A DNA stretch of 46,112 nucleotides from Catajapyx aquilonaris (taxonomy: Eukaryota), in NCBI GenBank assembly GCA_000934665.2, contig JYFJ02003222.1, positions 1 through 46,112 on the forward strand, written 5' to 3'. The notes beneath the pieces are model-generated. The model was not told the origin of the DNA. It did no database searches and saw only the letters and a list, made by a program, of their open reading frames with translations. The position numbers were made by a program, and so were the translations under genes. How positions within the stretch are numbered: the stretch's first letter is position 1; every line of letters begins with the position of its first letter. Shown here one piece after another: positions 3,261-33,900 of the stretch.

Positions 3261-3812
3261 TGCTGCACTTTGATTCTAATAACTATCAGGAAGGATCACT
3301 TTCACTATATTAAAAAATGCGCACAATTCCATCGGTGACGACACTAAAATGCTTCCTGTCTGACAGTAGAAAACAATGCCTTGCATGAGCCGGGTCATGA
3401 AGCTTACTATCAAAGTGTACACATAAAGAAGGGAGATAACGTGGGAGACAAGATAAGCTGAACTCCTTGGCGATTACAACTGCATATATTTTAGACTAGT
3501 TGTTTCTCGTCTTAAAGTATGAGTTTTTTTCTTTTACTGTGTAACACTCATATTTATCGAAATTATTATTGCTGATCCCTGGTGGATTACTCCGACGTGG
3601 TGACGAAACGGCCCATCCATAACGCCTTCCCCCAACAACACTGACCAATAAACAGAATGTTCGACCCATACTGTCGCAACTTATGCGACAGGCCAAGCGA
3701 CTTATTGCACACATCTGTTGACAACACTTGCATGTTTACCAATATTGACATACATATAGGGTATTCTTTCCCTTCATGAATCCAAGACAATCTTTAGTCC
3801 AGTGTGTGAATA

Positions 3813-5585
3813 ATGACTTGTACAATGATGTTAGTCCGAAAATATTTGCTCCTTTGTTGGTCAGTGTGCAGCGCTCTAATTTTACGGAAGTTTGACAATA
3901 CGGACAACAAAATGTTGTTCGAACATTACCTAAGCGAGTTAGTGCAACATCATCAATTATCCAGTTGTACTTTAAACCTAATGATGGACAAAGAGACAGT
4001 TCTGTCATCTGCTTCCGGAGTTTCAACAGATCTTTACATTCCACAGTTAGTGAGTAATGTATCAGAGAATTTGCTTCCCGAGAAGTTGATTCATCAAGTT
4101 GTTGTGCCCATGCAGTTCGGTCAGTGCGTATTTCACGTGTACTACTGTCACCCAGCACACATGCAAAAATTTGCAAATTACACCATGCAAGGCATCACTT
4201 TTGGAGACGCTGTAAGGACAGACTACCACCTTTTCTACCACGATGAGGACATTCCAATGGACTCTGTTCTCCAGGACCCCCACTTCAAGTTCAAGGTGGG
4301 GATACAGAACCTGAGGCGTGAATCGGAGCATATAGTCGCAAGGTGGTTGCAAGTCTGCCATTTTTGCAACAATGGTGAGCTCGCAATAATGGCAGAGGAT
4401 CGGTCTCATCTTCCGATCGAGCTCTTTCCTGACACAACCCGCAACTTCAAAGGAAGGGCTATTCAAATGCTGTATTCTCAAGCACATTTAGATCATTTGA
4501 TTTTCAAGACTTTAGGATGCACTCCAATCCCGAATATTGCACATCCTCGGGACATGAAGGACGGATTCTTTGTATCATATTGGAATGACGAAAGTGAAGA
4601 AGAAGAAGCCTACTTGGCCTACACTCATCCCATAATGATAAATCACATCGTATTTGTTACGAAGAAATTCCCTCATGCTTTGCCCTGGAATTTGCTCGGT
4701 AATCCGTTCAGATGGGAAGCCTGGATTTTTCTATTGATTTTGAGCTGTATGAACTTGCTGGCTGCCAAGCTCATCTCAAGATATGAAAATGTTGAATATG
4801 TAACGGTGCCTGTGTATTTATATCACTACATGTTGCCTTTGCTGTTGGCCCAGGGGTCACGAGAAGTCAGATCAACCGCCATGAAATGGGTGCTTGGATT
4901 CTGGGGATTCTTCGCAGTGATTGTGTGCACCCTGTACAACTCAAAGCTGACATCGTTCATGATGAACCCACCGCAATTCACGATCGAATCAATGGAAGAT
5001 TTGATCCGCCTGAATTATGGATGGGGAACTCACAAACTTCATTTTGGAGGATACTACAACCAAACAGACAACAAGACCATTGCTACCATTGCTCAAAAAA
5101 TGGAAATGGTAGAACCTCCTGAGTGCTTCGGGCGTGTCCTAACAGAAGAATATGCATGTTTTGGTCCAGCCGTTTATTTCAATGTTCTCTACAGTTTTGA
5201 TATGCAGAACAAGTTCCATGAGGAGCAAGTGGTTCTCACTCCCGCAGGGCTTACCTGGCACTACACGTTCATTAAAGTCCATAAACATTACCCCTACTTA
5301 GACAGTTTTAACCGAGCAATGTCCTTCTATTGGGCTACCGGATGGCATCATTACTTGATTGATTTGTTCGCCAAAAACCTCCGATTCAGGAAGAAATTCA
5401 TATTGAGCAAGGCAGGTTTGTTGCATGAAGAAACTGGCCCTTCTAAAACCACCCTGTGGGACATGATAGTCACTCTTTCCTTGATGATCTGCGGCTGTGG
5501 GATCTCACTGGCAGTATTTGTTTTCGAGGTTGCAAAAGGAATTAATAAGAAAGCGCGTCGTTATCGGAAACCATTTCTGAAATAG
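3813..5585 (+). CDS. Divergent ionotropic receptor, copy 1 (intronless, 590 aa)
   Basis: Signal peptide, CHFC...LFPD.T.NFKG, pre-M1 NPFRW, M3 FWGFFAVIVCTLYNSKLTSF followed by IESMEDL, C-terminal TM ending VFVFE. Confidence 0.88.
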   Translation: MTCTMMLVRKYLLLCWSVCSALILRKFDNTDNKMLFEHYLSELVQHHQLSSCTLNLMMDKETVLSSASGVSTDLYIPQLVSNVSENLLPEKLIHQVVVPMQFGQCVFHVYYCHPAHMQKFANYTMQGITFGDAVRTDYHLFYHDEDIPMDSVLQDPHFKFKVGIQNLRRESEHIVARWLQVCHFCNNGELAIMAEDRSHLPIELFPDTTRNFKGRAIQMLYSQAHLDHLIFKTLGCTPIPNIAHPRDMKDGFFVSYWNDESEEEEAYLAYTHPIMINHIVFVTKKFPHALPWNLLGNPFRWEAWIFLLILSCMNLLAAKLISRYENVEYVTVPVYLYHYMLPLLLAQGSREVRSTAMKWVLGFWGFFAVIVCTLYNSKLTSFMMNPPQFTIESMEDLIRLNYGWGTHKLHFGGYYNQTDNKTIATIAQKMEMVEPPECFGRVLTEEYACFGPAVYFNVLYSFDMQNKFHEEQVVLTPAGLTWHYTFIKVHKHYPYLDSFNRAMSFYWATGWHHYLIDLFAKNLRFRKKFILSKAGLLHEETGPSKTTLWDMIVTLSLMICGCGISLAVFVFEVAKGINKKARRYRKPFLK

Positions 5586-6219
5586 GATACCTCTGACAGT
5601 GAGTGGCCTCAGTTTGTCACCTTTCTGTACGCAATGCTCTATACATATTATAATATTTACCAGAATTAATAATAAAGAAAAAGGGTTTATGCACAAAATA
5701 ATAAGAAAGTACAGAGCATCAGAAATGAATGAGCTGGGTCATTTTTAACCAAGTTTGGATCATTATGTTTTTGTGTGTAATATGAGCAAGAAGTAATATT
5801 TATGAAAAAATAAATTTGCACTCCAAAAATTATTATGCCTGCCCGCTCTCCCATCTAGTAGATTTATCATTATTTTTGGTACATATTTATGATATTTGAG
5901 ACATGATATTTATTCCTTAGGATTGAACCTGTCCCGCTGTCCTCTCCTCAAACCTATCTTTCGTTTTTGGTATACACGTATTGCTTTTCATACGCTGATG
6001 CTGGTTCATACAATATTTAAACACATACATGTAATTGCTCCGCATGTGCGCATATTTTCGTCGAAATGGGATAGTGGCAAGCCCAGCGAAGCGGATATGG
6101 ACAGGAAAGGGAATTCAGAGAACACTGATCAAAGCCAACTGAAATGGCTGCGAGCAACACTATACATCAAAAAATATGGGATCAGTAGTCCTAATCCAGT
6201 GTAACAGTTAGCATCAACC

Positions 6220-7989
6220 ATGTTTATAATGTGTCTCACTTTTCTTATTTTATGCAGTGCACAAGAGTCGGTGTGGAAGACTCTCATTCCCAATGATACA
6301 AGTTTATTGTTTAGAAATACAGAATTAGAAATACAGCTAATACGCAATCCGAGACTCTCCAAGTGTACTTTAAACTTGATGCTTGATAGCCAAACAATTT
6401 CAGCACCAATTTGGAAAACTTATTTAAATTCGGACGTCCCTCAGTTAGTGCACGATATATCAAAGAAGTTGCCTTCAAGGAAATATGCAGTTGTACCTCT
6501 TGAGTCTGGCCAGTGTGTCTTGCACGTCTACTATTGTCACCCAACACACATGTCAGAATACATTAATTTCACCCTGTATGACATCGCGTTTGGAAACGCT
6601 GCCAAGACAGACTACCACCTCTTCCACGGCGGTGATTTGCCAATGGATGAAGTGTTGAAGGACCCACACTTGAAGTTCAAGCTGGGGATTGAAAGGCTTA
6701 GACTGGAATCAGGAGGAGTGGTTGGAAAGTGGCTGCAGGTTTGTCACTTCTGCGACAAAGGTGAGGTCAAAATCACTCCTGAGGACGTCCGTGGTATTCC
6801 CGACGAACTGTTCCCGGACACTACCAGGGATTTTCATGGGAAACCACTTGTATTGTTGCTACCTTATCACTTGTTCGGTTATATCATTTGCCAAGTACTA
6901 AAGTGTACCTTGGATGATAGTATTGGTCGTTTTCATCCTCGAGACGTAAAAGGCGGTTTATACATATCTTTCTGGAGGGATGTCACTGATGAGGAAAAAG
7001 ATTACTTGTCACACATAAATCATCCTACAACGATGGAGAGAACCGTCTTTGTCACTAAATGTATACCTCCTAAGATCACGTGGGACCTGCTTATCAAACC
7101 GTTTAATTGGAAAACCTGGTTGTACGTGACATTTCTAACTATTACGAACTTGATAACTGCTTACCTGCTCTCGAATTCAAGATATGTCGACGAAGCAACT
7201 TCAGCGTTTTCATACTTCTACTTTTACATGTTGCCTTCATTCTTTGGGCAAGGTGGGACACGAAAAACGAGATCTGAAGTTATGAAGGGCTTATTCATAT
7301 TTTGGGCTATCTTCTGTGTGATAATATCTACCCTGTACATCTCAAAAGTGACATCATTTCTTACGAATCCCGGATCCTTCAGATTTGAATCAATGGAGGA
7401 CTTAATAAGGATGAATTATCGGTGGGGCATTAATCCATTATTTTTTAGCGACTACTACACCTCTTCTGAAAACGAAGTCATTGCCACAATTGGCAGCAAA
7501 ATGATGCCAATTGAATTTATCGATCAGTGCCTGCTGCATGTCATTGCTGACGATCATTTCGCTTGTTTCGGTCTCGAAACTAACATTCTCATACATTACA
7601 CCGTAGATTACAAGAACGAGTTTCATGAGAGTCAAGTAGACATTACTGTAGCTGAAATTCCTACTGATATGTGGCTTCCCAAAGTCCATAAACATTACCC
7701 TTACTATGACAGTTTAAACCGAGCTCTGTCGCCTTTTTGGTGGGCAGGAATGTACAACTATTGTGTCAAAGTTATGCTGGAGCAGAACCGGTACTTGAAA
7801 AACTACGTCCTGTACAAAGCAGGACAATTGGAAGATGTCACAGGTCCAATTAAAATTGGCCTCAGAGGAGTGGCAGTCCCCTTTTGTTCCCTTGCCGTGG
7901 GTTGGGCTATAACATTAATATTATTTATCGTGGAAGTAGTGAAGGGATGGAACCGTACTTCTCCAACAAGATACCCTTTTTTGAGATAA
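6220..7989 (+). CDS. Divergent ionotropic receptor, copy 2 (intronless, 589 aa)
   Basis: Same IR topology (KPFNW, FWAIFCVIISTLYISKVTSF, FESMEDL, terminal TM); clear paralog of copies 1, 3 and 4. Confidence 0.88.
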   Translation: MFIMCLTFLILCSAQESVWKTLIPNDTSLLFRNTELEIQLIRNPRLSKCTLNLMLDSQTISAPIWKTYLNSDVPQLVHDISKKLPSRKYAVVPLESGQCVLHVYYCHPTHMSEYINFTLYDIAFGNAAKTDYHLFHGGDLPMDEVLKDPHLKFKLGIERLRLESGGVVGKWLQVCHFCDKGEVKITPEDVRGIPDELFPDTTRDFHGKPLVLLLPYHLFGYIICQVLKCTLDDSIGRFHPRDVKGGLYISFWRDVTDEEKDYLSHINHPTTMERTVFVTKCIPPKITWDLLIKPFNWKTWLYVTFLTITNLITAYLLSNSRYVDEATSAFSYFYFYMLPSFFGQGGTRKTRSEVMKGLFIFWAIFCVIISTLYISKVTSFLTNPGSFRFESMEDLIRMNYRWGINPLFFSDYYTSSENEVIATIGSKMMPIEFIDQCLLHVIADDHFACFGLETNILIHYTVDYKNEFHESQVDITVAEIPTDMWLPKVHKHYPYYDSLNRALSPFWWAGMYNYCVKVMLEQNRYLKNYVLYKAGQLEDVTGPIKIGLRGVAVPFCSLAVGWAITLILFIVEVVKGWNRTSPTRYPFLR

Positions 7990-8993
7990 ATATTCATAAT
8001 AAATTAATATTTTTCCCAATGTAACGCCCAGGTCAAAGTGCAGAGTGTCATTCCTATTAAGTACATTGGTACTGGCACCTTAAATACGCATTGCCAGTAA
8101 ACGGACCACCATAATCTTTTTATGTGTCTGGCATATAATATGCTACCCAGAATGTACGTATAAGTTGATAGCGCTGCTATTATTTGTTAATTATGGCGTG
8201 GATCTTTTAACTTTTAACACTTCATGCTTTGTGTACTGATGAACATGCAAAAAAAAAAAATGCTTGTAAACTTCCATGATGCCTTTCTTTTCAAGTCATG
8301 TACGGTTCCTTCAGCAATTTAATGTCCACTTTTCTCATGGCCGTAAACCATTTTATATTCCATTATAACCCACATATTCTTAATCACGATGTCCATTTAT
8401 ATATTAAAACATTCGCCAGGCAATCGTCTTTGCGATGGAAAACCAATGCAATCGTCATGTCATGTGCTGTCAGTACCTCATCTTGTAACAAAATAAATAA
8501 TTGGCAAAGGAAAGGATAAAACGAACGTAACTCGGAACGTAAAAGTTGTCGCCTCACTGCTTCATTGTAGAAGTCGAGGATTTCAAAAGTAAAAGGGTTT
8601 TCCTATATCATGCGATGTAATCTAACCTGACAGCCAAATGAGTTAGACAAAAAGTTCTTGTTTTGTAGTCGTATGATGAGGACACTACAATGTAATGCAA
8701 AGATATTATTAATTATTAATTTATTGTAGGTGTTACAGGAGGTAGATGAAAGTACGATACGAGCATGACACTACGGGTAATGAACCTCAGTCCAAATAGA
8801 AAAGCTATATTAATTTGGCAAAGAAAATACACAAATCAATTATTCCTTTTGCCGTGCAATATATTTAGGTGATAAGGCTAGCTAAAGCACACAAATTGTA
8901 CGATATGTTTACTTCTCCAATGTTGACACATATAGGGTTCTTGTCCCTTCAATATCACTTTATTTTAGTTGTAGTGTGTGAACGAACGTGGAA

Positions 8994-10784
8994 ATGGTGT
9001 TTCTCAGAATAATTCTCCTCCTTTATTATTCGTTAGTGTGCAGCGCACTCATTACACCAACGTTTGACGATGCAGACAGCAAAATAATGTTGTTCGCAGA
9101 TTTCCTCAATGAGTTCTTAAGTCACCCTCAAATTTCAAGTTGCACTTTAAACCTGATGATGGACAACAAGACAGTTCTGTCACCTGCTTCCGGAGTTTCA
9201 ACAGAGCTTTACATTCCCCAGTTGTTGCGTAACGAATCAGGACCATCGTTTCCGGAAATGATGTCTCATGTGGTACCTCTGCACTCTGGTCAGTGTGTCT
9301 TGCACGTGTACTATTGTCACCCAACACACATGTCTGAATATGTTAATTACACCCTGTATGACATCAAGTTCGGAAGCGCTGCCAAGACAGACTACCACCT
9401 TTTCCACGGTGGTGATTTGCCAATGGATGAAGTGTTGAAGGACCCACACTTGAAGTTCAAGCTGGGGATTGAAGGATTGAGAAGGGAATCAGAGGACTTG
9501 GTTGGAAAGTGGCTGCAGGTTTGTCACTTCTGCGACAAAGGTGAGGTCAAAATCACTCCTGAGGAAATCCGTGGTATTCCCAGCAACGAACTGTTTCCTG
9601 ACACTACCTTGGATTTTCATGGGAAACCACTTGTAATGTTGCTGCCTTATCACTTATTTGGTTATATAATTTGCCAAGTCCTAAAGTGTACCTTGGAAGA
9701 TAGTAGTCTGCGTCCTGGACGCGTCCAAGGCGGTTTATATATCTCTTTCTGGACTGATGTCACTGAGGAGGAAAAAGATTACTTGGCATACTTAAATCAG
9801 CCTACGGCGATGGAAAGAACTGTCTTCGTCACTAAAAGCATACCTACGAAATTTTCTTGGGATATGCTTATCAAACCATTCGTGTGGAAAACGTGGCTGT
9901 ACTTGTCACTTCTTACTTTTATGAACTTGATAACTGCTTACTTGCTCTCGAAATCAAGATATGTTGACGACGCAACTTCGGTTTTTGCATACTTCTACTT
10001 TCACATGTTACCTACATTCTTTGGGCAAGGTGTGACACGAAAAACGAGTTCAGGAGTGATGAAGTTCCTATTCATATTTTGGGCCATTTTCTGTGTCATA
10101 ATATCTACCCTGTACAGCTCAAAAGTGACATCCTTCCTCACGAATCCTGGTTCCTTCAGATTGGAATCGATGGAGGACTTAATAAAGCTTAATTATCGGT
10201 GGGGGATTCATCCATTCTTTTTTCGAGATTTCTACAACTCTTCTAAAGACAAAGTCATTGGTGCAATTGGCAGCAAAATGATCAAATACAACTTATTGGA
10301 AGAGTGCTTGATGCGTGTCATTGATGACGATCACTTTGCCTGTTTTGGCCTGGAAAATCTTTTTCGTTTGTATTATGCCGGAGATTTCAGGAACGAGTTT
10401 CGTGAGAATCAAGTAGATTTTACTCTAACTGAACTTCCCCCTGATATGTGGCTTCCCAAAGTCCATAAATATTACCCTTACTATGATAGCTTAAATCGAG
10501 CTCTATCTCCTTTTTGGTGGGCAGGAATGTACACTTTCCATGTAAAAGTTGGGCTGGAGAATAGACGGTACTTTAAAAACTACTTTCTGAACAAAGCAGG
10601 ACTGTTGGAAGAGGTCACCGGTCCTATTAAAATTGGCGTCAGGGGAGTCGTAGTCCCCTTTTGTTCCTTGGCCTTGGGATGGATGACCACTTTGATTATA
10701 TTCATTGTCGAAGTTTTGAAAGGACGAAATAATATTTCTCCATACGAGACACCCCTTTATAGGGGAAAAAAACTGTGCCATTAA
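8994..10784 (+). CDS. Divergent ionotropic receptor, copy 3 (intronless; ATG at 8994)
   Basis: Same motifs (KPFVW, STLYSSKVTSF, LESMEDL). The ORF track starts at an upstream GTG. Confidence 0.88.
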   Translation: MVFLRIILLLYYSLVCSALITPTFDDADSKIMLFADFLNEFLSHPQISSCTLNLMMDNKTVLSPASGVSTELYIPQLLRNESGPSFPEMMSHVVPLHSGQCVLHVYYCHPTHMSEYVNYTLYDIKFGSAAKTDYHLFHGGDLPMDEVLKDPHLKFKLGIEGLRRESEDLVGKWLQVCHFCDKGEVKITPEEIRGIPSNELFPDTTLDFHGKPLVMLLPYHLFGYIICQVLKCTLEDSSLRPGRVQGGLYISFWTDVTEEEKDYLAYLNQPTAMERTVFVTKSIPTKFSWDMLIKPFVWKTWLYLSLLTFMNLITAYLLSKSRYVDDATSVFAYFYFHMLPTFFGQGVTRKTSSGVMKFLFIFWAIFCVIISTLYSSKVTSFLTNPGSFRLESMEDLIKLNYRWGIHPFFFRDFYNSSKDKVIGAIGSKMIKYNLLEECLMRVIDDDHFACFGLENLFRLYYAGDFRNEFRENQVDFTLTELPPDMWLPKVHKYYPYYDSLNRALSPFWWAGMYTFHVKVGLENRRYFKNYFLNKAGLLEEVTGPIKIGVRGVVVPFCSLALGWMTTLIIFIVEVLKGRNNISPYETPLYRGKKLCH

Positions 10785-11329
10785 TATAGTTCACAATAAC
10801 ACTCCTAAGGTCAGAGGGCACTTCATCGCTTCGGCATTCATTGTTGTCTAAGTGTTTCATGGCTGTTGTCTCGGCATTTTTCTCTCCTACAATAATATCC
10901 ATTGCAACATTCCACTTTGTATTCTAATAGTCTATGTACGTATTTCATATTTCCGGATTTCGGAAGCTATGAATATGATGGGAGGAATGGTAATTTCCGT
11001 GTAACTGAGATTTTGTTATCCTCGATGTGACTATATGAAATAAATATTATATGTAATAAATTTAATTGAGAAAATACAAAACACGTGTTTTGATTACACT
11101 GTTGTAAGCTATACATTGCTGTAACTATCGTGTTTCATTGTCTTTTTCGATGTTTTAATATGTGTATTTTAAAAAATTAAACTGCTCAATAGCCCTACCA
11201 ATCAGGAGGGATTTGGGGGGGGGGGGGCGTAAATCCCCGAGAAACAAAAGACCTATTCGGAATACGATCCGACCACAAAAGAAGTAGCCTATTGAGAAAG
11301 GCGATTGTGAAACTTACGCAGAAAATCGG

Positions 11330-11560
11330 CCAGTTGTTATTGACTCGTGTTTCACAACAATGAATAGTGGGAATGACCGAGAATAATAATTTATTAATCA
11401 ACCCACTTGCAAAAGGACGAGGCCAACATGAAAAAGGCGTGTGATCTTTCAAAGTCAAAGGCACTAGTGCTTGTGTACTTCACCTGCTTATTTGAAGGTT
11501 ATTGAACATTGACAGTATATTGACCCTAGACATAAGCAACTCACATTGAGCAATGACACC
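11330..11560 (+). repeat. Duplicated non-coding block, copy 1 (between IR3 and IR4)
   Basis: Alignable with 15284-15507, e.g. AAAGGCGTGTGATCTTTCAA.GTCAAAGG, GAACATTGACAGTATAT and GCAACTCACA.TGAGCAATG. Confidence 0.85.
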
Positions 11561-12216
11561 CTCAGAAATAGGGTCTATCTAGATTCGAATTGTTACAGAT
11601 ACAATCTTATTATAATAATTTTATGATTATGAAAATGACCTAAAAGGAACATCCAATGCATAGCCTTTTCAGTCGTTTACGATGTTCGGATCCAATATTA
11701 TAATGACACCCTTTGTCATAAATAAGATGTTAGGCTGTCAGGCTTTGGTATTTCATGCGTTTGAGAGATATATTGACATTTTTTGGACTTTTATTTCTAA
11801 CTTAACTATTTGCCAATGCACGGATAATCGGCAGCAGCCAGCAAGACAATATTCCCAGGAAGGGATATCACACAATGCCTGAAATTGTGGTAGAGAGAGA
11901 GAGAGAAAAGAATCACAACGTGGCAAAAGCCAACAGACGACAGTGTGCTCAATAATGTGCCAATGAAATAATTGGCAAAAGGATTATAATATAATGGATG
12001 CCCTGTGATGGGCCTCCTTGGGCCTCTTAGGACCTTATGACCTAAGACCTATATGATAAGTGTAAATCAATTCCTTCTGCAGTGTAATAATTGAGGTGAT
12101 AGCTAGAGCACACATTTGCTGACGCAACTGGTATGTTTAGTCTACTTCCGCAATATTGACATGGACACTCTTCCCTTCATGAATCCGAGCTTAGTGTGGG
12201 AACGAACATCGAAGCG

Positions 12217-13995
12217 ATGTTTCTCATAAAATATTTTCTCCTTTTTTCGTCAGTGTGCAGAGGACTCTTTGAACTCAAGTTTGACAATGCAGGCAACGAA
12301 ATGATGTTATTTAAAGATTTTCTCAACGAGTTCGTGAGACACCCTCAAATATCAAGTTGCACTTTAAACCTGATGATGGACAGCAACACAGTTCTGTCAC
12401 CTGCTTCCGGAGTTTCATCAGATCTTTACATGCCCCAGTTAGTGCACAACGCATCAAGACAGTTGGTTCCGGTGCTTTTGTCTCATGTGGTGCCTCTGCG
12501 CTCTGGCCAGTGTGTCTTGCACGTCTACTACTGTCACCCACCACACATGTCTGAATATGTTAATTTCACCCTGTATGACATCAAGTTCGGAAACGCTGCC
12601 AAGACAGACTACCACCTTTTCCACGGCGGTGATTTGCCAATGGATGACGTCTTGAAGGACCCACACTTGAAGTTCAAGCTGGGGATTGAAGGATTGAGAA
12701 GGGAATCAGAGGACTTGGTTGGAAAGTGGCTGCAGGTTTGTCACTTCTGCGACAAAGGTGAGGTCAAAATCACTCCTGAGGAAGTCCGTGGTATTCCCAG
12801 CAACGAACTGTTTCCTGACACTACCAGGGATTTTCATGGGAAACCACTTGTAATGTTGCTGCCTTATCACTTATTTGGTTATATAATTTGCCAAGTCCTA
12901 AAGTGCACCTTGGATGATACTATTGGTCGTTTTCATCCTCGAGACGTACAAGTAAAAGGCGGGTTATATATATCTTTCTGGACTGATGTCACTGAAGAGG
13001 AAAAAGATTACTTGGCATACTTAAATCAGCCTACGGCGATGGAAAGAACTGTTTTCGTCACTAAAAGCGTACCTCCGAAATTATCTTGGGATACGCTAAT
13101 CAAACCATTCACGTGGAAAACGTGGTTGTACTTGTCATTTCTAACATTTTTGAATTTGATCATTGCTTACTTGCTCTCCAATTCAAGATATGTTGACGAA
13201 GAAACTTCGGTTTTCGCATACTTATACTTTCACATGTTACCTACATTCTTTGGGCAAGGTGTGACACGAAATACTCGATCTGGGGCGATGAAGAGCTTAT
13301 TCATATTTTGGGCCATTTTCTGTGTAATAATATCTACCCTGTACATCTCAAAAGTGACATCCTTCCTCACGAATCCTGGTTCCTTCAGATTTGAATCGAT
13401 GGAGGACTTAATCAAGCTTAATTATCGGTGGGGGATTCATCCATTCTTTTTTCGAGATATCTACAACTCTTCTAAAGACAAAGTCATGGGTGTAATTGGC
13501 AGCAAAATGATAATATATAACTTATTTGAAGATTGCCTGATGCGCGTCATTGATGACGATCACTTTGCCTGTTTTGGCCTGGAAACTTTTTTTCGTTTGT
13601 ATTACGCCGGAGATTTCAGGAACGAGCTTCGTGAGAATCAAGTAGATTTTACTCTAACTGAACTTCCTACTGATATGCTTCTTGCCAAGGTCCACAAACA
13701 TTACCCTTACTATGATAGCTTAAACCGAGCTCTGTCGCCTCTTTGGTGGTCAGGAATTTACACCCTCAATTGTAAAGTTCTTGTGGAGCAGATGCAGTAC
13801 TTAAAAAACTACCATCTGTACAAAGCAGGACTGTTGGAAGATGTCACCGGTCCAATTAAAATTGGCCTCAGAGGAGTCGTAGTCCCCATTTGTTTTCTTG
13901 CCTTTGGTTGGACCATAACATTTATATTATTTATTGAGGAAGTAGTGAAGGGACGGAAGCGTACTTCCCCAATGAGATACCCCTTTTTAAGATAA
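12217..13995 (+). CDS. Divergent ionotropic receptor, copy 4 (intronless; ATG at 12217)
   Basis: Same motifs (KPFTW, STLYISKVTSF, FESMEDL). The ORF track starts at an upstream GTG. Confidence 0.88.
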   Translation: MFLIKYFLLFSSVCRGLFELKFDNAGNEMMLFKDFLNEFVRHPQISSCTLNLMMDSNTVLSPASGVSSDLYMPQLVHNASRQLVPVLLSHVVPLRSGQCVLHVYYCHPPHMSEYVNFTLYDIKFGNAAKTDYHLFHGGDLPMDDVLKDPHLKFKLGIEGLRRESEDLVGKWLQVCHFCDKGEVKITPEEVRGIPSNELFPDTTRDFHGKPLVMLLPYHLFGYIICQVLKCTLDDTIGRFHPRDVQVKGGLYISFWTDVTEEEKDYLAYLNQPTAMERTVFVTKSVPPKLSWDTLIKPFTWKTWLYLSFLTFLNLIIAYLLSNSRYVDEETSVFAYLYFHMLPTFFGQGVTRNTRSGAMKSLFIFWAIFCVIISTLYISKVTSFLTNPGSFRFESMEDLIKLNYRWGIHPFFFRDIYNSSKDKVMGVIGSKMIIYNLFEDCLMRVIDDDHFACFGLETFFRLYYAGDFRNELRENQVDFTLTELPTDMLLAKVHKHYPYYDSLNRALSPLWWSGIYTLNCKVLVEQMQYLKNYHLYKAGLLEDVTGPIKIGLRGVVVPICFLAFGWTITFILFIEEVVKGRKRTSPMRYPFLR

Positions 13996-16111: not shown

Positions 16112-18451
16112 ATGGATGCATTTGCTGTGATTATAGGTGCTGCTGGGCATCAGGGCAACGGAATGTCAGCGTCGGCTGCTGGTAATGGTAATGGGGAGGT
16201 GTTGCAAATGCTGTGTGGGATATACCAAATGCTGGAGAGGAGTCTGGCGCAGTCGGACAGGATCGAGAAGAAGCTGGATGAGGTTGAGAAGAGAGTTGGG
16301 AGGCTAGAGGCCGTAATTCAGAGGGAGAGGGAAGAAAGTACTGCGCAAGGTCAGACGACATTGCACACTCTTAACATGGCTCCTTTAATGAGCATTAAAA
16401 GCCTAAAATTATTAAAAAGCAAAAAAAAAAGAGAAAAAGGCTCACATTAAAATTTTACAGGTGGAAGTTCTGAAGACCATACTATTTCTGACGTCAAGTG
16501 TGAAGCAGAAAAGTGTTTCATTCAAGAACGTCCTGGCAGGAGCCGTGACGCCTACATGCCGGCAACAGATTTAACAGCGTTCAAGCAGGTGAATTTATTC
16601 GAATGTGATTTTGTTTTTGATTCTGCAAATGTTTGTATTAGATATTAACTGAACCACAAATTGGACTGTCACTTGGAAAATACTATTCTTGGAATGATAT
16701 AATCTGCATGTCACCTCAGCTGTTGTTAAAAACACAAGAAATTTAGTTCATTATTTTTGTGAACGAATAGTTCCATGCACTAAGTTATATTTGAATGCTG
16801 TATCATATATGCATTAAAAAATTGCATCATTTATGACATTGGCTTCTGTTTTCGGTTTAGGAGAATTGGAATCCAGACCCCACAGAATTGACACAAGACG
16901 AGAACATAGATGAGACTGATGAAATTGGCCATGAAGATCCTCTTCGCATGGAAGTATATCATTCTGCAAGTGATCCGCTGGGATTTGTCCTATCCGCAGG
17001 AAATCAGGCAAGCCTACAGATAGTGTTGAATATACTTCATCTAAACTTACCCTTTTGTAAGTCTGCCAGCCAATCATGTATATACACCATTTATATACGT
17101 ATGTTATAGGCTGGCACAACTGGCAGGAAGCAAAGAGCAGTACTTTCGAGATGTGCCACACATGCATTACAGCTTTGTAATGATAATTTGTATTACTCAT
17201 TAAAACTGCGCTGAATGTGAGTGTTTCCAAATGGTATGAAGACATACACACTTTGGTACACCCAGATCGCATGTGTGCTGAAACATCATTTACATTGAGA
17301 ACCTAGCATCAAGCTGAATTACACTGTTGATGGAAATAATGTTTTGTATTTGGACATGGCACAAGTATAATCAATTTTTCCGATTTTATTGTTATCACTT
17401 TCAGGATTGGAAGCAAGTTATGAGATTAAAATTCAGCCATTTCAAGTTCACACCAGGCTTACACAAGCTACTTACAAACACAGAGATGGTCCCCCAAGAG
17501 CACTGCAAGCTGTTGTCTCTAGCCAAAGATGAAGTCATCAAGTTCTTGGAGTAAGATTACTTCAGAGTACTGTTTCTTGTGTTTTAGACTTGAGTCACAT
17601 TGCTATCAAGGCGTCTTTCTTCACTCTACACTCTTGTTTCCATTCACTATCTATCGCTATCTATCCTGCATTCTTATGCAGTAACAAGATAGCCGTAGTT
17701 TCTTCGTCTTCTTTCCACTCAAATAACCACCTGGGCACATGGGGATCACCTTAATCCAGGAGAGTCCGTGAAATTTTTAACTGATACAAAATGTTAGCTC
17801 AATTCTGAAGCACATGATATGTGACACTGTTTATTTTACTATTTTGCTTTCTTTACAGTGAGGAAGAGTTAATTGAAACAAGAAATACGAGATGTGCTGG
17901 ACTTCAATATAAATACCTGGGTGATCTCATTTGCAGTACTTACCCTGATTTCCAGTGGGATAAGTGGAAAAGAAAGGATAAAGAGCTCGTGCCAGCACAT
18001 CAGAGGCAGGTTAGTACAGTGGTGGAAATTAATGGATATCCACAAGTATGACCATCTGGCGGAGTTTGCCCTCTACATGAAGCTGCTTCGTCCATTAATT
18101 TCCACCACTTTACATACATTATGGCAGGAATTATATTAGTCAGAGAAGTATCTAAATTATAATAAGACAGGCACTGTTATAACTATAAACTGGATGTTCT
18201 GACAACAACCAAACAATCCTTAGTTACAGCAGTTTCTGTTATAAAAATAGAAAACTGCGTTTGGTGACATACTGTAGAAAATTAATGGAACTACTTACTT
18301 TGGTATATACAAATGTGGCAATTTCATTTTACAGCAGTTTTTCATTAGAACACTTGCTGAAAGGAGGCGCATGCGACGGCTGCGAAAGATTTGGCAAGGA
18401 CCGAGGAAGAAAACTTCAATGGAAAACGTGCAGTGCACCCCCATGTCTTAG
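16112..18451 (+). CDS. Gene B: coiled coil + acidic linker + unknown helical/basic C-terminal domain, about 308 aa; exons 16112-16349, 16461-16588, 16861-17007, 17405-17550, 17859-18009, 18335-18451
   Basis: Exons splice in frame (phases 1,0,0,2,0) and match gene C exon for exon. Intron 3 needs a GC donor. Confidence 0.82.
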
Positions 18452-19833
18452 GTTACCATTTAAAAAATAGTTTGGAAACACATGTGAATTCAGAAACTTC
18501 GACACACTTGTGCCATTGGTGAGTCCATGATCATGGGTAAACTTGAAAGCCCTGCCGAGAGTATTACATTGTTTTTACATTCTCCCACTACTCCTGGGCG
18601 TAGTGTGTTGTTCCCTAAATGATTCTCATCAGGTGTATTCTGTTAGACCTGGACACTTTTGCATCTCCGACTGAAGTTTTATTAAGTCCACTGTCGCAAA
18701 GTACAGTGTAAGTACGAGTACAAATGGGATTATTATATGTGTTGAGACCTTACTCAAAATTTAATAGGAAACGTTCTATTTACGTCGTATTCATTATTAG
18801 CCATTAGTATCCAGATCAGAAATCATAATGAGTTAAATATTTGACAAATAAAGAAGTCGCTATTAGTTTAACTACCTAGGAATTAGATTCCTGAAAGTAC
18901 GAGAAATTGAGTAATTTAATTTTTAATTGAGTATAGTGGAAACTTGAAATAAAGGTCTTCTATTGACTTTTATTTTCCTCTTCAGAAGTAGAGCTTTTGT
19001 GTACCCATTTTTGATGAAGTGCCTGGGTCCGCAAGCAGGGCAGGGTGACTGGGAGGTGCAGGATGCACATGTAATGTTGTTGCTTGGCCATTCTGTGAGT
19101 TCACCCGGATATCTATGCACCTGGGCGGTTAGCAGCTATGAAGCAGGTGTACGCCAGTGTATGGCGTATACCCATAGGGTAAAAGCGACATGTTAGACTA
19201 TATGCAACTATACACTGCGCTGAGTATACCTTATATTTGGAATGGTGCCCAAGTCTTATTCGCTTCATTTCCCCTCCTGTTGTTTTTAAATTATAATACA
19301 CAGTAGGACTATAAACCACGTTATCTGCTGCCAATATCAAATGTATATTTTCTATGTACTGTTAGTGTAGTCGAATAAAACCTGCATAACATTTTTTTAC
19401 AAAAGCATTCTTAGCTCAATATTCTGCAAAAAAATATGCTCGTGTATTTATATGTGTTTGTCAAGTGTAGAAATATTGGTAGGCCTAATTTACCTCGAGG
19501 CGCATTCGCCCGATACGATTAATTTTCAGTCATGAACATTATGCGCCAAATTGCAGAAAAATTACTTTACTTCATTACGTTATTATTACAATTAACAGAC
19601 ATATTCTGCTGGAAGTGGAACAGTCATAATATCTGATTGACAAAATAATAGAAAAATTTCCCAAGTAAATTGGGATCTTCGTTTTTATTGAAAGAACGAG
19701 GTGCATATTTTTACTAGTCCATAAAACGGGAGGAACAGCAACGTATTGTGCTGTACCTGCTTTGTATCTTATTAACACCCTTACATTAAATTAATCAATA
19801 TGTATTAATAGTTATTAACAAAAAAGTCCAATG

Positions 19834-19954
19834 CCGTATCACGCGATACGGTTAACTGGCAGTCCATCGTTCCTACTAATACTATCCCTTATTTCTGAAC
19901 CGTTCCGAACTGATCATGGCGCACTGGTAGGAATGCGTCTTCCAATATGGCGTC
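19834..19954 (+). promoter_or_regulatory. Probable gene C promoter: CCGTAT-N6-ATACGG palindrome and YY1/Pho-like CAATATGGCG
   Basis: Paralogous to 15781-15903. Confidence 0.5.
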
Positions 19955-20237
19955 TTGTGTAATGATTTTTTTCTTTTCTTCTTTTGTCGGCTGCCAATAA
20001 TGAGTCGCTTTGAGTGAAAATTCGCATGTTATTCATACACCAGGAGGACATACTGAACAGGCAATTACTGTAAGTATAACTAGAACGCATTTGGAGAATT
20101 TTGCAATTTGTTTATACCGGTCCATACTTTGCAATATGATATTAATATTTATCAGCCGGTGTAGTACGGATGTGACACTTAATGGAATGTAAGTACACCA
20201 GATAATTGTAGAGTGCAACGACTAGGTACATCAGCTC

Positions 20238-20287
<50 letters not shown>
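20238..20287. repeat. (AAT)n microsatellite
   Basis: About 16 AAT units, with GGTACATCAGCTCATAA occurring on both sides. Confidence 0.95.
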
Positions 20288-20424
20288 CCGGGTACATCAG
20301 CTCATAAACTAGTAGATGTAACGAGCGATGGCATTAATTCACACCTTTTTTTTACAGGCAGCTGGAATACATATTTGGCACACTTGCTGTGTGACTACTT
20401 ATTGGACAAAGTAATTTCGACAAA

Positions 20425-22173
20425 ATGTCAACCGCAGATGGTAATGGGGATGTGTTGCGGATGCTGCAAGGGATATACCAAATGCTGGAGAGGAGTCTGG
20501 CCCAGTCGGACAGGATCGAGAAGAAGGTGGATGAAGTTGAGAAGAGAGTTGGGAGGCTAGAGGTCATAATTCAGAGGGAGAGGGAAGGGAGGGAAAGTAG
20601 CGGCCAAGGTGAGACTAAAAACAGCATAATTTAATTCAGTCATGCACTTGAAAACACATTAATTTTCCATTACTATGGATGGCATAAGCAGTATATTGTA
20701 CATTTTTTTACTAAAATCCTACCCTAGTTCTGTAGTATAAATGCACTGTCCTGACAGATTACAGTTCTGAAGAACATCCTGTCACCGATGTGATTAAGTA
20801 TGAACCGGAAGAGTCTGTTGAAGCTCACATAACTGCGGAAAGTACCAGCAGCAGCAACGCTGCCTACATCCGGACAACAGATTTTAGTCGCACCTTACGA
20901 AACGAGGTGACGAGATTACATTCTGATTTTATTAAAACAATTGTTGTTGTATTGTGTTCCAAGTATGTTTCCAGTTTTACAGGGAAATTTAACGTGGCGT
21001 AATTGATGTAACACAAAATCATGCGTTGCTAATGTCGATGTGCATTCTGTTTTTGGTTAGGATGATTGGAAGGAAGAGCCTGCAGAATTTGCACAAGATG
21101 AGAACATGGATGAAACTGATGATTTAACTCATGAAGATCCTCTTCAGAGAGAAGCGTATGTAACTGGCCATCCTTCGGATAATCAACCAGCTGCAGCAAA
21201 TCAGGTGCAGATGCAGATATGTAGTACATATATGCTAAATATGGTTTGCAGCTATGTAATTGTTACGTCATATGTAAAAATTGCATTGAATGATTCATTT
21301 TCAAAGGACTCTAAGTGCTCTAATGACCATGATACAAAAGTCTGGACTCAGTTGCAAAAATGTAAGCTACATTTGTATTGATGAAACAGCTTCATTGTCA
21401 CACATTAATGTCCATGGATGAATGGATGGATGAAACAAGTTTTTTGAAACATGAAATTGGCAAGATCAATTTTTCTAATAATTACTCTTTGCAATTACAG
21501 GATTGGAAGCACAAAATGAGGGACAAATTTAACAGTTTCTGTTTCACAGCAGCACTAGAAAAGCTAATTACAAACATAGAGATGACTCGGCAAGAGCACA
21601 GCAAGCTCGTGTCTGTCGCCAAAGATGAAGTCATCTCCTTCTTGGAGTAAGTTTATTCCAAAGCATTCTATGCTCTCAGTTCTATTGCCATCAATGATTC
21701 GTTTACAGCAGGGAAAAGTTAATTCAAACACGCAACACTAGAAACGCCGGACTTCAGTACAGATACCTGGGACATCTTATACGAAGCTCATACCCTAATT
21801 TTCAGTGGGACATGTGGAAAGGAGGCAGTGAAAAGCCTGTGCTACCTACTCAGAGGCAGGTTAGTATACATAAATGGCAGGAATATTTTTTTCACAAACA
21901 TGTCCAAATAATTTTGTGCGACTGAGCCAAGCGTTGCGTTTGGATTATCTCAACCGGTTTTTGGACCTGGTGTATTTTTGTGTTGGACTAGTAACTTCGC
22001 ATTTAACGTAGAATTATGTCGATGTAAATTTTACAAGTCGAAACTTCAATTTACAGCAGCTGTTCATTGGGAGACTCGCTGATAGGAGACGCAGAAGACG
22101 GCTTCGAAAGTCATGGCAAGGTCCGACTAAAAATAGCAACATGGTACACTTGCAATGTACCCCCATTACTTAA
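20425..22173 (+). CDS. Gene C: paralog of B, about 296 aa; exons 20425-20608, 20758-20906, 21061-21204, 21501-21646, 21709-21859, 22057-22173
   Basis: In-frame GT-AG splicing. The last three exons have the same lengths as in B (146, 151, 117 nt) and conserved AKDEVI.FL, AGLQY.YLG.LI...YP.FQWD.WK and FI..LA.RRR.RRLRK. Confidence 0.85.
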
Positions 22174-23744: not shown

Positions 23745-26356
23745 GACCAGGCAGTGACATTCGACGACGAAGTACCGAAGTAAGACGGTGCGGAGGTAGC
23801 GCCTGCGCTGCTGGAGCGGCGTTTATGGGAACTTCTAGGGGTTATAGAGGACACCAAGACAAACATTTTTCACATAGGAATCCGGGTCAGGAATGCCATC
23901 TAGAGGGGGTTCATAGACAAGGAACGGATGTGTCACTAACGAGCAGACTGTTTAGTTACTAGGTGATGCACGGAGAGTAAACACCGTCTCGACGAGCAAT
24001 AACCTGGCAACAACAGATCCACCTAGCAACTAAAGCTCTCTTGCTAGGCAGCCTGCAGATAGTAAACAACGGCTCTGTTGTTGCCAGGTTATTGCTCATC
24101 ATGTCGGTGTTTACTATCTGCTTGTCACCGAGTAACTAAACAGTCCGCTTGTTCGGCCCTTCTGCCTGACACGTCTGAGCGCACCCGTTCCTTGTCTATG
24201 AACCCCCTCTAGATGGCGTTTCCGGACACGGGTTCCTATGTGAAAAATGTTTGTCTTGGTCCCCTCTATTACCCCTAGAAGTTTGTCGGTTGAATTCATT
24301 TACGCTCCCCAATAATTGCAAGATGTCATACCAAAAAAAAAAAAAATTGTAGGCCTACTCATTACTTTTTATTATTTAAAACAAAAATCACACAATCTGC
24401 CCCCACCCTCCAAAAAATAACTTCAAGTGGAGTATAATTGATGATCTTTGTTTTCCGCACAGGTTATTCGTGTTTAGAATTTACTCCTGTTGATGGTATC
24501 AAGTGTGAGCCGGAGGAGTTTCAGGAAGATCCTGAAACTGCAGAAGTTCCGTGCAGTTCAGATTTTCATGAGCCAATGTTCATGCAAGGATCTGAACAGG
24601 AAAGAGGTTTTGAAAGTGAGGTAAGGTACTAGTGCTCATAGCAAGGTTTACAGTTTTAACATTAAAAAAAAGTCATCATAGAAGGAGAGTTCATGAAAAA
24701 GTAGCTTTAATTCCTATTAACATTATATTCAAATCACATTCATTTAAATAAATGGGAAGTATTTACCTATCAGCAAATTAATCCAATTGTTACATGCTGT
24801 GTGCTGGGCATGATCTACCTTGATACTGATTGGGCACTACATCAAATTTTGTAGCTGTGGCCTCATATAAAGGGACATTTACAGTACCGTTTATACTAGT
24901 GATTCCTTCTTGTTGGTTTAGGCAAATTGGAAGCAGGAGACCACAGAATGTGCCCAAGATGAGATGGTCACTGAAGAAGCAAGTGTACTTTCTGAAGGAG
25001 ACCCCCTGCTGAGAGGAGCCAACATGTACGGTCAGCCTGCAGAATTTGGCACAATAGCAGAAAAGGTGAGCTAGATACATTGCTGCTGTGTAATTTGCCA
25101 TCATGCAGATAAATAGTTCATGAGTTTGTGGAAGACAACATTTCATAAGAACAAATGGTGTTCTGACAATATCAAGCCATCATTTAGAAAGAGAATATCT
25201 GCTGCTTTCTTGCTTTAAATTTAGTTAAAGGACCATCAAAATGAGATATAATACAGGGATGTGACAATATGTTGCTTTTAGACAAAATGGTTACAGCTCT
25301 CTGATAATAACTGATAATAAAGATCTAAATCAGCATTCTACAAGATCAGGTGCTTATTCTAATTATTCTGTTTTTGACATTTCCAATCATGTCATATGCA
25401 TGAATAAGTGTACCTGCTAGACCGACCTCATGTGCGCCACCCCTACGTGCATTGTACTGAACTTGTGCAGCATATCTTATTTGTGCCTCTGTTAATACAG
25501 GGGCACAATCTCAAGGAGCAATGAAACAATATTTTATAATATTGTAACAAAATTACAAATTATGCATGGCATAAAAAATTATATAATAATAATTATAATC
25601 CATTGAATCAATTACTTATGTGCATGTGTATGCGTTCTCTTTTAGAGTAACTATCAGCAGGGCAAGCTGATGGATATGCAAGATTCTTTTCAATTTGGAG
25701 CTGGAGATAAGAGATCTAATACTACCTCAGAACTGGAAGCAAGATCAAATCTGTACACTGGAATTGCGGAAGGTCATGGAACATACGAATTCAGCGTCAA
25801 GCATGGTGATAGTTCAGTCCTTATGGTTACAAATAGTAGAAGAGGCCGCCCTTCAAGAAGTGATTGTGGTAACTCAGCTTCCGAGAGGTCAGGTGTGATG
25901 CCAGCTAATGTGTCAAGCAATAATGCAGTCTGTTCAAACAGCCTTAGGACTGCAACAGAGTATGAATTGCCAGGTCACCAAGGAAAGAAAGAGCAAGTTT
26001 GTCCTATTTGCAAAAAGGTGTTTACTTTGAAGGGAAATATGGTGAAACATTTGCGAGCCACACATTGGGGAGTGCGACCATTTTCTTGTGACATATGTAA
26101 CAAGGCCTTTAGTCGACGCAGTCATTTGAAGGCGCATGTTCATTTGCACACTGGAGAGAGACCGTATTGTTGCAAGGTTTGTGGAAAATCATTTAGTCAA
26201 AAGGGTGCTTTGCGTGCACACATGACTCTGCACACCAGAGAAAAGATTTTTTCTTGTGATGTATGTGGTATTACATTTGCTACCAAGAGAAATTTGGCTA
26301 CCCACAGAAGGGTTGGCCACTTGCCAGGAATCACACTGGAGGAAGAGCCCCATTGA
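22746..26356 (+). CDS. Gene D: coiled coil + acidic linker + 4 C2H2 zinc fingers, about 411 aa; exons 22746-22968, 24463-24620, 24922-25065, 25646-26356
   Basis: Exon 1 VLQMLHGIYQLLEKSLVQSDRIEKKVEEVEKRVERIE, exon 2 IKCEPEE, exon 3 ANWK...GDPL. The last exon has four C2H2 fingers including a TGERPY linker. Phases 1,0,0. Confidence 0.85.
23697..23741. repeat. (GA)n microsatellite
   Basis: Pure GA run in intron 1 of gene D. Confidence 0.95.
23830..24303. mobile_element. Foldback MITE with eroded termini, same family as 1-238
   Basis: AACTTCTAGGGGT.ATAGAGG...CCAAGACAAACATTTTTCACATAGGAA pairs with TTCCTATGTGAAAAATGTTTGTCTTGG...ACCCCTAGAAGTT; inner arms GAGCAATAACCTGGCAACAACAGA / TCTGTTGTTGCCAGGTTATTGCTC. 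Confidence 0.85.
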
Positions 26357-30900: not shown

Positions 30901-33900
30901 GGATCTTGGTGAAAATAATCACCCACAAGAATTCCAAAATGGGAATGTCCGCATATGTGGACAATAGGTCACAGTTTAACCCAGAGGAATGACTGTTTCT
31001 GTTGCATTTTCTGGGCACTCCATCAGTGCCAAGCAGGAATAATGTTAGGCTTGTCCAATATAACCCACCAGAATGTCAAAATGGTAATGTCCATATGATG
31101 TTCAATGATGATGGCTCTCCCCGCCAACCTACTGGAAGAGCAGAGGCGAATATATAAACCAAGGCCTGCTTCTGGTGTCTGGTGCTCTTAAGTAGTCATT
31201 TCTGGCCACCTTAAATGTACCAGAGCATTTCTCTTGCCCATGGGCAGAGAAGGGAATGCAATTCAGTCAATTCTACCCGGACATGTCGGGTGAAAAGCGG
31301 AAAAAGACCCGACCAAGCGAAGGTGACTGCCTGATGCGGACGGGATTTGAATCCCGGACCTCCCGCTTGGCTGGCCAGTAGAATAGCCACTAGACCACCA
31401 TGTCTGCCGCTGCCAAGTGACTTTCGCCTGTCCGAATGTATTTAAAAAGTCCCTTCGCCGATGCCATTTCGAGGGCATTTTTTACTGTGAAGAGTTGTCC
31501 TGGAGTCGGTGCGCCGCACCACCAAAAAGTGGTATTTTTCACAACACTGAGAAAGCAACTTAGTAATACGTTTTACAGACTAGAAAAAAGTAACAGTCTC
31601 TGAATGTCACAGAACGAATACTGTTTAGGCACTTAAATATTTTATTACTATGTTCTTCAGTGCAAAACTAAATGATCCTTTATTGATTCAGGTAAAGATA
31701 GAAGATACTGAGGACATTAATGATGAAATAGAAGCAGAAAGTCTTAGCCTTGGAAGTGAGGATCCACTTCAGCTAGACGCTGCCGACAATGTCGACTGCT
31801 CAGATGGACAGCCAGACAGTGGCACAGCTGAAGAATATAATGTGAGTTTTCCAGAAGATTGCATGATTTACCGACTGGATGGTTGTCATGGTGTTATTCC
31901 TTTCTGCCTTACCTAACCCTGTTGTAGCAGGACGGTGTTGCTATTATACAGTAGACTGTGGATATAACAAACTTCAAGGGACTGCTGAAATCTGTTTTTT
32001 ATAAGCAAGGTCTGTTATAGTTAAATACACAGGCCATATACAGTGGTGGCCACAATTATATTACTGTACCTTTTTGTATTTTGGGCACAGGTTTTTCAGA
32101 ATTTTCCGATTGAGCTGAAATTTTAACATGCCATGCACAAAGGCATTTGAAGAGAATATGTAAGATTGGAAGAATTTTTGAGTTGTATTTAATAAAAATA
32201 AACAATGTTTTTGTTTATTTTTTCACGTACTTCAAAATTCAACAAAATCTTCAAACAACCATAACATTCTGAAAACTCAACCAAATGCTACAAAATATGA
32301 CAAGCCAGTCACTCACCTCTTGTAATTGGTCTGGTACCCTTGGCGTTGGTGACAGTTTGACATCTGCGAGGCATTGAGGCGACACACTTGCCTAACACCG
32401 ATTGTGGGATCTTGTTCCACCCTACCGCCAGTTGCTTGTACCTATCGGTGGTCCTGGATGCTATTTTGTTCTTCAGATGACATCCAAGATCCTCCCATAA
32501 GTGCTCGATCAGATTGGGGTCCGGAGATCAGCTTGGCCAGTCCATTATGGCCACCCTCTACTAGTGCAGCCAAGTGCGGACAAGCGTGGAGGAGTGCTTT
32601 GGGTCCTTGTCATGCTGGTACAGTAGAGACTGGCCAAAAGCACTCCTTGCATATGGACACATGACTTGGAGGATATCCCTGAACACCTCCTTGGTCAGAA
32701 TGCCTATAATTCGGTGTAGGAGATTGATTCCAAGAAAGCTGAAGCAGCCCAATCTCAACTGGACACAGATACAGTGGGTGAAGTCTTCTGGTTAGACGAA
32801 TCAAGATTTCTGATGTTTGGAACTGATGGAATAACCTACGTTCATCGTCCCAAAGGTGACCAATTTGATCTCAAGCACTAGATACTGACCGACAGGCAAG
32901 GTGGAGGATCCACGATAGTCTGGGGCTGCTTCAGCTCTCTTAGAATCAATCTCCTGCACCGAATTATAGGTATTTTGACCAAGGAAGTGTTCAGGGATAT
33001 CCTCCAAGAAGTCATGTGTCCATATACAAGGAGGGCTTTTGGCCAGTCTCTACTATACCAGCATGACAAGGACCCAAAGCACTCCTCCACGCTTGTCTGC
33101 ACTTGGCTGCACCAGTAGAGGGTGGCCATAATGGACTGGCCAAGCTAATCTCCGGACCCCAATCTGATCGAGCACTTATGGGAGGATCTAGGAACAAAAT
33201 AGCATTCATTAGGGGGGTGGAACACCACCATACTTTCCATTTTCTTGGTTTTTTCCTTCAAATTCCGGTGCAGGGAAATCGGGGAAAGTGGGTAAGGATA
33301 GGGATTTTTTTGAGGAGGGGATGCGGGTGCAAGTGCAATGTCTCAAACTGGGCCATGTGCAGTCCCCCAGGAGGTTAGGTTGCCAGACACCTCCTTGGTG
33401 CAGGTCAGAGACCCTCCTGATGCAGCCGAAAGGGAAATCCCGTGCGGGGATCAAACCCGGGACCTTTCGATCAGCAAGCCAAGCCGTTACCAGCTCAGCC
33501 ACCACACCTCCCCCAAAAAGGCAATATAATTATGGCCACCACTGTAATTATGGAAATATTGTGGAACCAGCCTTTCGAGCCCGCTAATACCAGAGTTTGT
33601 TACAGCCGAGGGTGTAATATCCATAGTCAACTGTATACATGGAGTCAATGTAGCTTACCTCTCCTCTGTCCTGCTATTCCCATTACATCTGGCATCCATC
33701 TTCCATGCGAAATACTAGTCCAAAACACTAGTTTCAAGGTAAAATTGCAAAATTATAAATGCTCTGCATGATAAGCAGGCATTGATGATTGAGTGGGGAA
33801 AAATTCCTTTTGACCTCTTATGCAACGTGTAGTTAGTCTTGTGAAGAAGGAGGAGAGTCGGCCAAGCGGCATGGGCTGCAGGCCGACAGAGTCTAAATAA

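Follow-up and report, generated by a model that had tools for sequence, protein, structure and literature searches.

What stands in for the zinc fingers when members of a zinc-finger gene family do without them? The question is raised by a 46,112-nucleotide (nt) stretch of DNA from Catajapyx aquilonaris (contig JYFJ02003222.1 of assembly GCA_000934665.2, positions 1 to 46,112 of the forward strand; this whole stretch is called the window below), which holds four plus-strand genes, here named B, C, D, and E, between 16.1 and 35.3 kb. Each of the four has a similar first exon that encodes a coiled coil. Genes D and E carry zinc-finger exons, and genes B and C end in three exons that together encode a basic domain of 137 residues. 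An earlier interpretation of the same DNA from its letters (the sequence-only reading) had put this domain at ~135 residues and proposed it as a candidate DNA-binding fold with affinities to BEN or SAMD3-like proteins. The reading that we prefer, and to which we give a probability of roughly 40%, is that the domain forms a nucleic-acid-binding or nuclear-targeting module on an oligomerizing scaffold. As a functional inference, DNA binding is plausible; a family assignment is unsupported, and the domain is so far an orphan.

Gene B (16112-18451) and gene C (20425-22173) are built to the same plan. In gene B, the first domain exon (17405-17550, 146 nt) has a DWK motif at its start, ends in phase 2, and is bordered by an AG acceptor and a GT donor. 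The second (17859-18009, 151 nt), delimited by splice-site letters, encodes TRNTR, AGLQY, and YP-x-FQWD-x-WK motifs, and the last (18335-18451, 117 nt including the stop codon), which runs from an acceptor to the stop codon, encodes an RRR-x-RRLRK tract, the residues WQGP, and a conserved tail to QCTP-x-x. Their counterparts in gene C lie at 21501-21646, 21709-21859, and 22057-22173 and have exactly the same lengths (146, 151, and 117 nt, with the stop codon counted). The first of these has both of its flanking joints in a spliced contig, the second has the joint 21646|21709 together with splice-site letters, and the last again has an acceptor and a stop codon. Across the domain exons of the two genes, AG is present at all six acceptors and GT at all four internal donors. 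Upstream of the domain, each gene has a three-exon cassette: in gene B (16112-17007), the coiled-coil exon at 16112-16349, an exon at 16461-16588, and an acidic exon at 16861-17007; in gene C (20425-21204), the coiled-coil exon at 20358-20608, coding from 20425, an exon at 20758-20906, and an acidic exon at 21061-21204. The cumulative phases over the six coding exons are the same in both genes (1, 0, 0, 2, 0, 0; the gene C acceptor at 20758 was itself picked for its phase and its resemblance to gene B and lies outside the joints). The six exons join into open frames of 308 residues in B and 296 in C, with stop codons at 18449-18451 and 22171-22173, and an AATAAA follows downstream at 18847 for gene B and at 22373 for gene C.

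Transcript evidence for these models comes from the contigs of a public sequencing run (X1), for which the kind of sequencing is not on record. These contigs agree with the exons letter for letter and leave the introns out. Eight joints are listed: seven are consistent with GT-AG introns whose borders are those predicted, and one, 17007|17405, with a GC-AG intron. Among them are 16349|16461, 16588|16861, and 17007|17405 in gene B, and 20069|20358, 20906|21061, 21204|21501, and 21646|21709 in gene C. Two of them, 17007|17405 and 21204|21501, fall on the acceptor of the first domain exon in both genes, and 21646|21709 is an intron inside the domain. A separate contig, 18351-18582, spans the gene B last exon and 131 nt past its stop codon. 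The other three intradomain introns, 17550|17859, 18009|18335, and 21859|22057, have no joint among those listed in X1, and their placement is based on splice-site letters, phase, and the comparison of B with C.

Several smaller features of the transcribed region were noted along the way. The intron of gene B at 17008-17404 has a GC donor and the homologous intron of gene C has GT. Contig depth reaches 124 over a bin in an intron of gene D (24073-24423) and 14.7 over a bin in gene B (17755-18105); the latter includes the second domain exon, and in the intron that follows there are loose contig ends, at 18014 and 18049. Such high-depth bins probably mark elements that are repeated or have transcription of their own. 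A trinucleotide microsatellite (20228-20295), one frame of which reads as a run of asparagine, lies in gene C in the intron that follows the 5′ untranslated exon; it was passed over as a repeat in the comparison with X1.

The comparison of B with C indicates that the domain is maintained as protein. Of its 137 residues, 86 (63%) are identical between the two genes, spread over the three exons (31/48, 31/50, and 23/38, plus the split junction codon). When the region of gene B was aligned to that of gene C with blastn, five matches were returned, at 72.8-87.6% identity, and all lie on exons: one on the coiled-coil exon, one on the acidic exon, and one on each domain exon. No intron aligned in this comparison, and the intradomain introns differ in length between B and C (308 versus 62 nt and 325 versus 197 nt). 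Over the 137 codons of the domain, the ratio of nonsynonymous to synonymous substitution rates (dN/dS, Nei-Gojobori method) comes to 0.32 (bootstrap 2.5-97.5% range, 0.18-0.52), and the domain is therefore under purifying selection; by the same method, the ratio is 0.50 in the linker exons and 0.40 in the coiled-coil exon. The sequence-only reading, which took a dN/dS near 1 or a lack of expression to be damaging, is refuted on neither count, given this ratio and the spliced contigs of both genes. The residue pattern that it had pointed out was likewise reproduced by alignment, as were the identical exon lengths, and the domain that it had described is real, at an exact length of 137 rather than ~135 residues. 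Its picture of a conserved domain set against divergent linkers was right as far as the linker exons go (63% versus 46% identity) and incomplete in that the coiled-coil exon is more similar still, at 80%.

This last point deserves attention in its own right. The coiled-coil head is the part kept especially alike between B and C, and its synonymous divergence is low as well: dS is 0.26 for the coiled-coil exon (16112-16349 versus 20425-20608) and 0.80 for the domain exons. The low value may reflect gene conversion or an extra constraint on the exon. A well-kept head is compatible both with a nucleic-acid-binding scaffold protein and with a partner protein without DNA contact.

The place of the domain in the gene can be set beside that of the zinc fingers in a neighboring gene with the same kind of cassette. 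The coiled-coil exon of B matches that of gene D in tblastn at E = 6.6e-15 (65% over 55 residues) and that of gene E at E = 3.6e-6, and the acidic exon of C matches that of D at E = 6.4e-4. Gene D has its coiled-coil exon from 22746, an acidic exon at 24922-25065, and a zinc-finger exon at 25646-26356, so that its acidic and zinc-finger exons together occupy 24922-26356; Pfam assigns zf-C2H2 to the last of these at E = 1.3e-24. In gene E, the coiled-coil exon lies near 28000 and the zinc-finger exon at 33845-35257. The acidic exon of gene D is 144 nt long, as in gene C, and ends in phase 0, with the zinc-finger exon in frame at the AG acceptor 25646; these splice sites of gene D were predicted from the letters and lie outside the joint cover. 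The domain of B and C begins at a phase-0 boundary after the acidic exon, and this is the boundary at which the zinc-finger exon begins in D. Judged from exon structure, then, the domain holds the zinc-finger slot structurally, as the sequence-only reading had supposed. Pfam did not find zf-C2H2 when given the six domain exons of B and C one by one. This search, like the PDB, fold, and large protein searches described below, used single-exon queries of 38-50 residues each, which makes such searches weak tests of a link to BEN, SAMD3, or another family of this kind. Taken together, B and C are most likely finger-less members of a lineage-specific family marked by the shared coiled-coil exon and acidic linker.

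In composition, each protein falls into three parts: the coiled-coil exon, two acidic linker exons, and the basic domain. The linker exons have an isoelectric point (pI) of 4.2 and a net charge of -14 in B, and of 4.1 and -20 in C. The domain has a pI of 9.8 and a net charge of +11 in B, and 10.6 and +15 in C, most of the positive charge being held by the 38 residues of the last exon (pI 12.0, net charge +9). AlphaFold2 models were made for single exons from two-sequence alignments and cover the first and second domain exons. That of the first exon of gene B has helices at residues 2-11, 17-24, and 30-47 (mean predicted local distance difference test score, pLDDT, 82.5), and that of the second has helices at 2-27 and 33-41 (mean pLDDT 67); both are all-helical, with no strands. 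When the three exon pieces were co-folded as separate chains, the scores were 0.02 and 0.01 against a mark of 0.34, which is evidence neither way. Basic charge and modeled helical fragments are compatible with nucleic-acid binding. In the mechanism that we propose, the coiled coil would make the B or C protein oligomeric, the C-terminal domain would direct it into the nucleus and bind nucleic acid there, in all likelihood DNA, and the acidic linker would serve as the effector part.

A number of observations weigh against this proposal. Over the first 99 residues of the domain of B, the net charge is only +2. In the last exon, the opening 21 residues, where the arginine cluster lies, have a helical hydrophobic moment that is not above that of shuffled sequences (a share of 0.72 of the shuffles reaches the observed moment for B, and 0.57 for C), and the arginine stretch may be merely a nuclear-import signal. 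The slot is an argument from position, and gives a place in the gene rather than a function. With two copies known, the conservation pattern is thin. Finally, homology to any DNA-binding family did not appear in sequence, profile, or fold searches with single exons. Because the hydrophobic moment does not exceed that of shuffles, we do not claim an amphipathic recognition helix for the arginine stretch; the cluster fits an arginine-rich tract or nuclear-import signal and a packed recognition helix equally.

The main rival account is one in which B and C act as finger-less adaptors or decoys. The domain would then be a protein-binding domain with a nuclear-import signal, and the two proteins would join their zinc-finger paralogues through the coiled coil, either to tune their activity or to supply them with cofactors, making no DNA contact of their own. 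The coiled-coil exon, by both identity and dS the best conserved part between B and C, is also the part that D and E have in common with them; the arginine tract behaves as a plain basic signal and not as an amphipathic helix; and the single-exon Pfam and PDB searches brought no match to a DNA-binding family. On the other hand, the conserved helical body of the domain says nothing of its ligand, and the net charge of +15 in C exceeds what an import signal needs. On balance we regard this account as rather unlikely.

The search for relatives of the domain returned little. Across all six exon translations, Pfam gave no relevant family at E ≤ 10, the sole match being a subthreshold one to DUF2205. 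A PDB sequence search with three exon profiles gave three unrelated proteins at E ~1 when the second exon was the query, and no match with either the first or the last. The domain thus stays unrecognised by Pfam and without a credible PDB match, as the sequence-only reading had it. A fold search with the 48-residue model of the first domain exon found generic helical hairpins only. In a word-index protein search, the second domain exon yielded three candidates among longer proteins and the coiled-coil exon yielded 35, none of which scored. As a control, a neighboring ion-channel open reading frame (ORF) that matches Pfam Lig_chan was put through the same search; it gave 3870 candidates, none at E ≤ 1e-5. 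The control being blank, the word-index collection therefore covers this lineage poorly, and its blanks say little on novelty. In a protein atlas, the best score of the second domain exon was 0.87. The first exon reached 0.97 to clusters of HECT fragments, a candidate that we rejected: recognition was 1773, below the mark of 2300, and no exon matched the Pfam HECT family (PF00632) at E ≤ 10. A HECT domain spans ~300 residues, against the 137 of this domain.

One relationship suggested by the sequence-only reading was to BEN proteins. The hydrophobic spacing where the first domain exon meets the second is, as we take it, reminiscent of BEN domains, and no computation backs BEN membership. BEND5, BEND6, and Insensitive share a BANP-like layout, and BANP-type BEN factors are of similar size to B and C, at ~300 residues. 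BEN domains are described as typically 90-100 residues long with five conserved helices, to which two short N-terminal strands are added in NAC1 and BANP (PMC7764960, PMC11472053), and as reading DNA by a C-terminal helix (PMC11472053, PMC7764960). In BANP, an N-terminal coiled coil oligomerizes and sets the DNA selectivity of the helical DNA-binding domain (PMC11472053), and B and C are like it in combining an N-terminal coiled coil with a C-terminal helical domain that has a basic end. If the domain were a true but divergent BEN domain, its last helix would sit in the major groove of DNA and the coiled coil would oligomerize the protein as in BANP. Beyond the similar layout, the modeled fragments are helical, as this would require. 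However, none of the six exon translations matches BEN (PF10523) at E ≤ 10, each being 38-50 residues long, so that a match would straddle an exon boundary; no BEN chain appeared in the PDB sequence searches with three exon profiles or among the fold-search matches listed for the exon 1 model. The domain also differs in length (137 versus the 90-100 residues given as typical in PMC7764960), and the fragment models of exons 1 and 2 lack strands, of which NAC1 and BANP have two short ones. Single exons thus provide neither a sequence nor a profile link to BEN. This evidence against it is weak because only pieces were tested, and we consider a BEN domain distinctly unlikely.

The other name put forward for the domain fares no better. 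SAMD3-like proteins have, as the family name indicates, an N-terminal SAM domain. A scan that covered the coiled-coil exons and the acidic exons of the two genes found no SAM family there at E ≤ 0.01, and a literature search on a SAMD3 domain brought up nothing relevant.

One search did give a lead. A HMMER search of 1.84 billion representative proteins with the profile of the second domain exon returned 10 matches at E ≤ 0.001, all of them repeat proteins and all of them sums of 3-21 weak stretches. Six (P0001, P0003, P0004, P0005, P0008, and P0010) have in common a module of ~75 residues, and its end resembles the YP-x-FQWD-x-WK stretch encoded by the second domain exon. The module has the signatures W, NQR, DWY, GG, and YP-x-x-x-W, and may represent an undescribed repeat family. 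Kinship of the domain with this module would draw on several results: the E-values of the six proteins against the profile run from 1e-8 to 9e-4, every one a sum over 3-9 weak stretches; hhalign against 30 extracted units gave a probability of 95% over 23 columns, at domain positions 64-86, where both sides share a helix followed by YP-x-aromatic-x-W-x-x-W; and P0008 passes the Pfam model for Rap1 Myb (E = 3e-11, 44 bits against a cut-off of 27.1, from four weak stretches). The 95% is circular, however, the proteins having been chosen by that very motif. The likeness also stops at the motif: hhalign gives 0.7% for the first domain exon alone and 0.6% for the last exon alone, and the full 137-position profile reaches no more than 15 bits per stretch, with all stretches within positions 46-110. 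The five proteins other than P0008 have no Pfam family above threshold and no name beyond "hypothetical protein", and a search of PDB with P0005 and P0001 gave nothing useful. The alignments point to a shared motif, not a shared domain, between the repeat proteins and B and C, and we hold true kinship to be exceedingly improbable.

The sequence-only reading had also entertained a transposon origin for the domain, for which no support emerged. The coiled-coil family might have captured and domesticated part of a mobile element, such as a helical domain of capsid-like or transposase-accessory type, and this would suit a family that evolves by swapping C-terminal modules. Viral contigs held no relative in searches with two exon profiles. 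The sole metagenome locus to be matched (L001) was rejected, as it encodes a bacterial permease with a chance heptapeptide motif in common. Moreover, two introns at conserved positions split the domain in both B and C, and these two copies are the only ones in the window: tblastn found no third copy or remnant of the domain there. Such an origin appears very unlikely. On its side stand two opposed ORF fragments at 32300-33150, in a long intron that belongs to gene E, with almost identical peptides that we take to be the C-terminal part of a Tc1/mariner transposase; Pfam gave no match for any of six queries made up of these Tc1-like fragments and the linker ORFs of gene E.

The domain may be a new DNA-binding or partner-binding module. 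A stronger claim, that it is an undescribed DNA-binding fold that is interchangeable with C2H2 arrays on a coiled-coil and acidic scaffold in one animal lineage, is in our opinion unlikely. Were it true, it would add a class of transcription-factor DNA-binding domains born within a fast-evolving zinc-finger family.

There is precedent for the kind of exchange that the nucleic-acid-binding reading entails. In the BTB family, most members have C2H2 fingers and NAC1 and NAC2 have a BEN domain (PMC7764960), so that one oligomerizing head is combined with either C2H2 fingers or another DNA-binding domain, much as B and C stand beside D and E. The two cases differ in that the head in B and C is a coiled coil, not a BTB domain, and the alternative domain matches no family. 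The KRAB zinc-finger family of tetrapods and the FiNZ zinc-finger family of cyprinid fish, each with an N-terminal domain of its own, offer a second parallel, as lineage-specific, tandem, fast-evolving genes recognizable by a conserved sequence at the N-terminus (Wells et al. 2023, PMC10547256). In contrast to these, B and C are without zinc fingers, and the abstract of that study (PMC10547256) has no counterpart to their C-terminal replacement.

The usual description of fast-evolving zinc-finger families has a single effector head joined to finger arrays that keep changing. B and C depart from that description as expressed, constrained members in which, with the splice phase kept, the whole finger array is swapped for an unrelated basic helical domain. 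Should the domain bind DNA, these genes would represent a new DNA-binding module and would clearly exemplify how transcription factors evolve through the exchange of modules at the level of exons. Otherwise, B and C would be natural finger-less partners of the zinc-finger proteins and could reveal what purpose the family's coiled-coil head serves.

The surroundings of the four genes are those of an animal genome, with ~40% G+C and short introns. Further coiled-coil-like ORFs lie on the minus strand at 998-1360, 37362-38009, and 40101-40622; the first is weakly like the coiled-coil exon of B (tblastn E = 0.005), and the other two look alike by eye, with only weak Pfam matches. The left part of the window contains a minus-strand GT10 fucosyltransferase. 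On the plus strand, at 3810-13995, are four tandem intron-free ORFs of ~590-610 residues. For one of these, the word-index collection, with its poor coverage of the lineage, yielded no relative at E ≤ 1e-5. Three of the four were scanned with Pfam, and each matches Lig_chan at 34.5-37.6 bits against a threshold of 30.8; by this similarity, the four ORFs may constitute a lineage-specific cluster of ionotropic-receptor-like genes.

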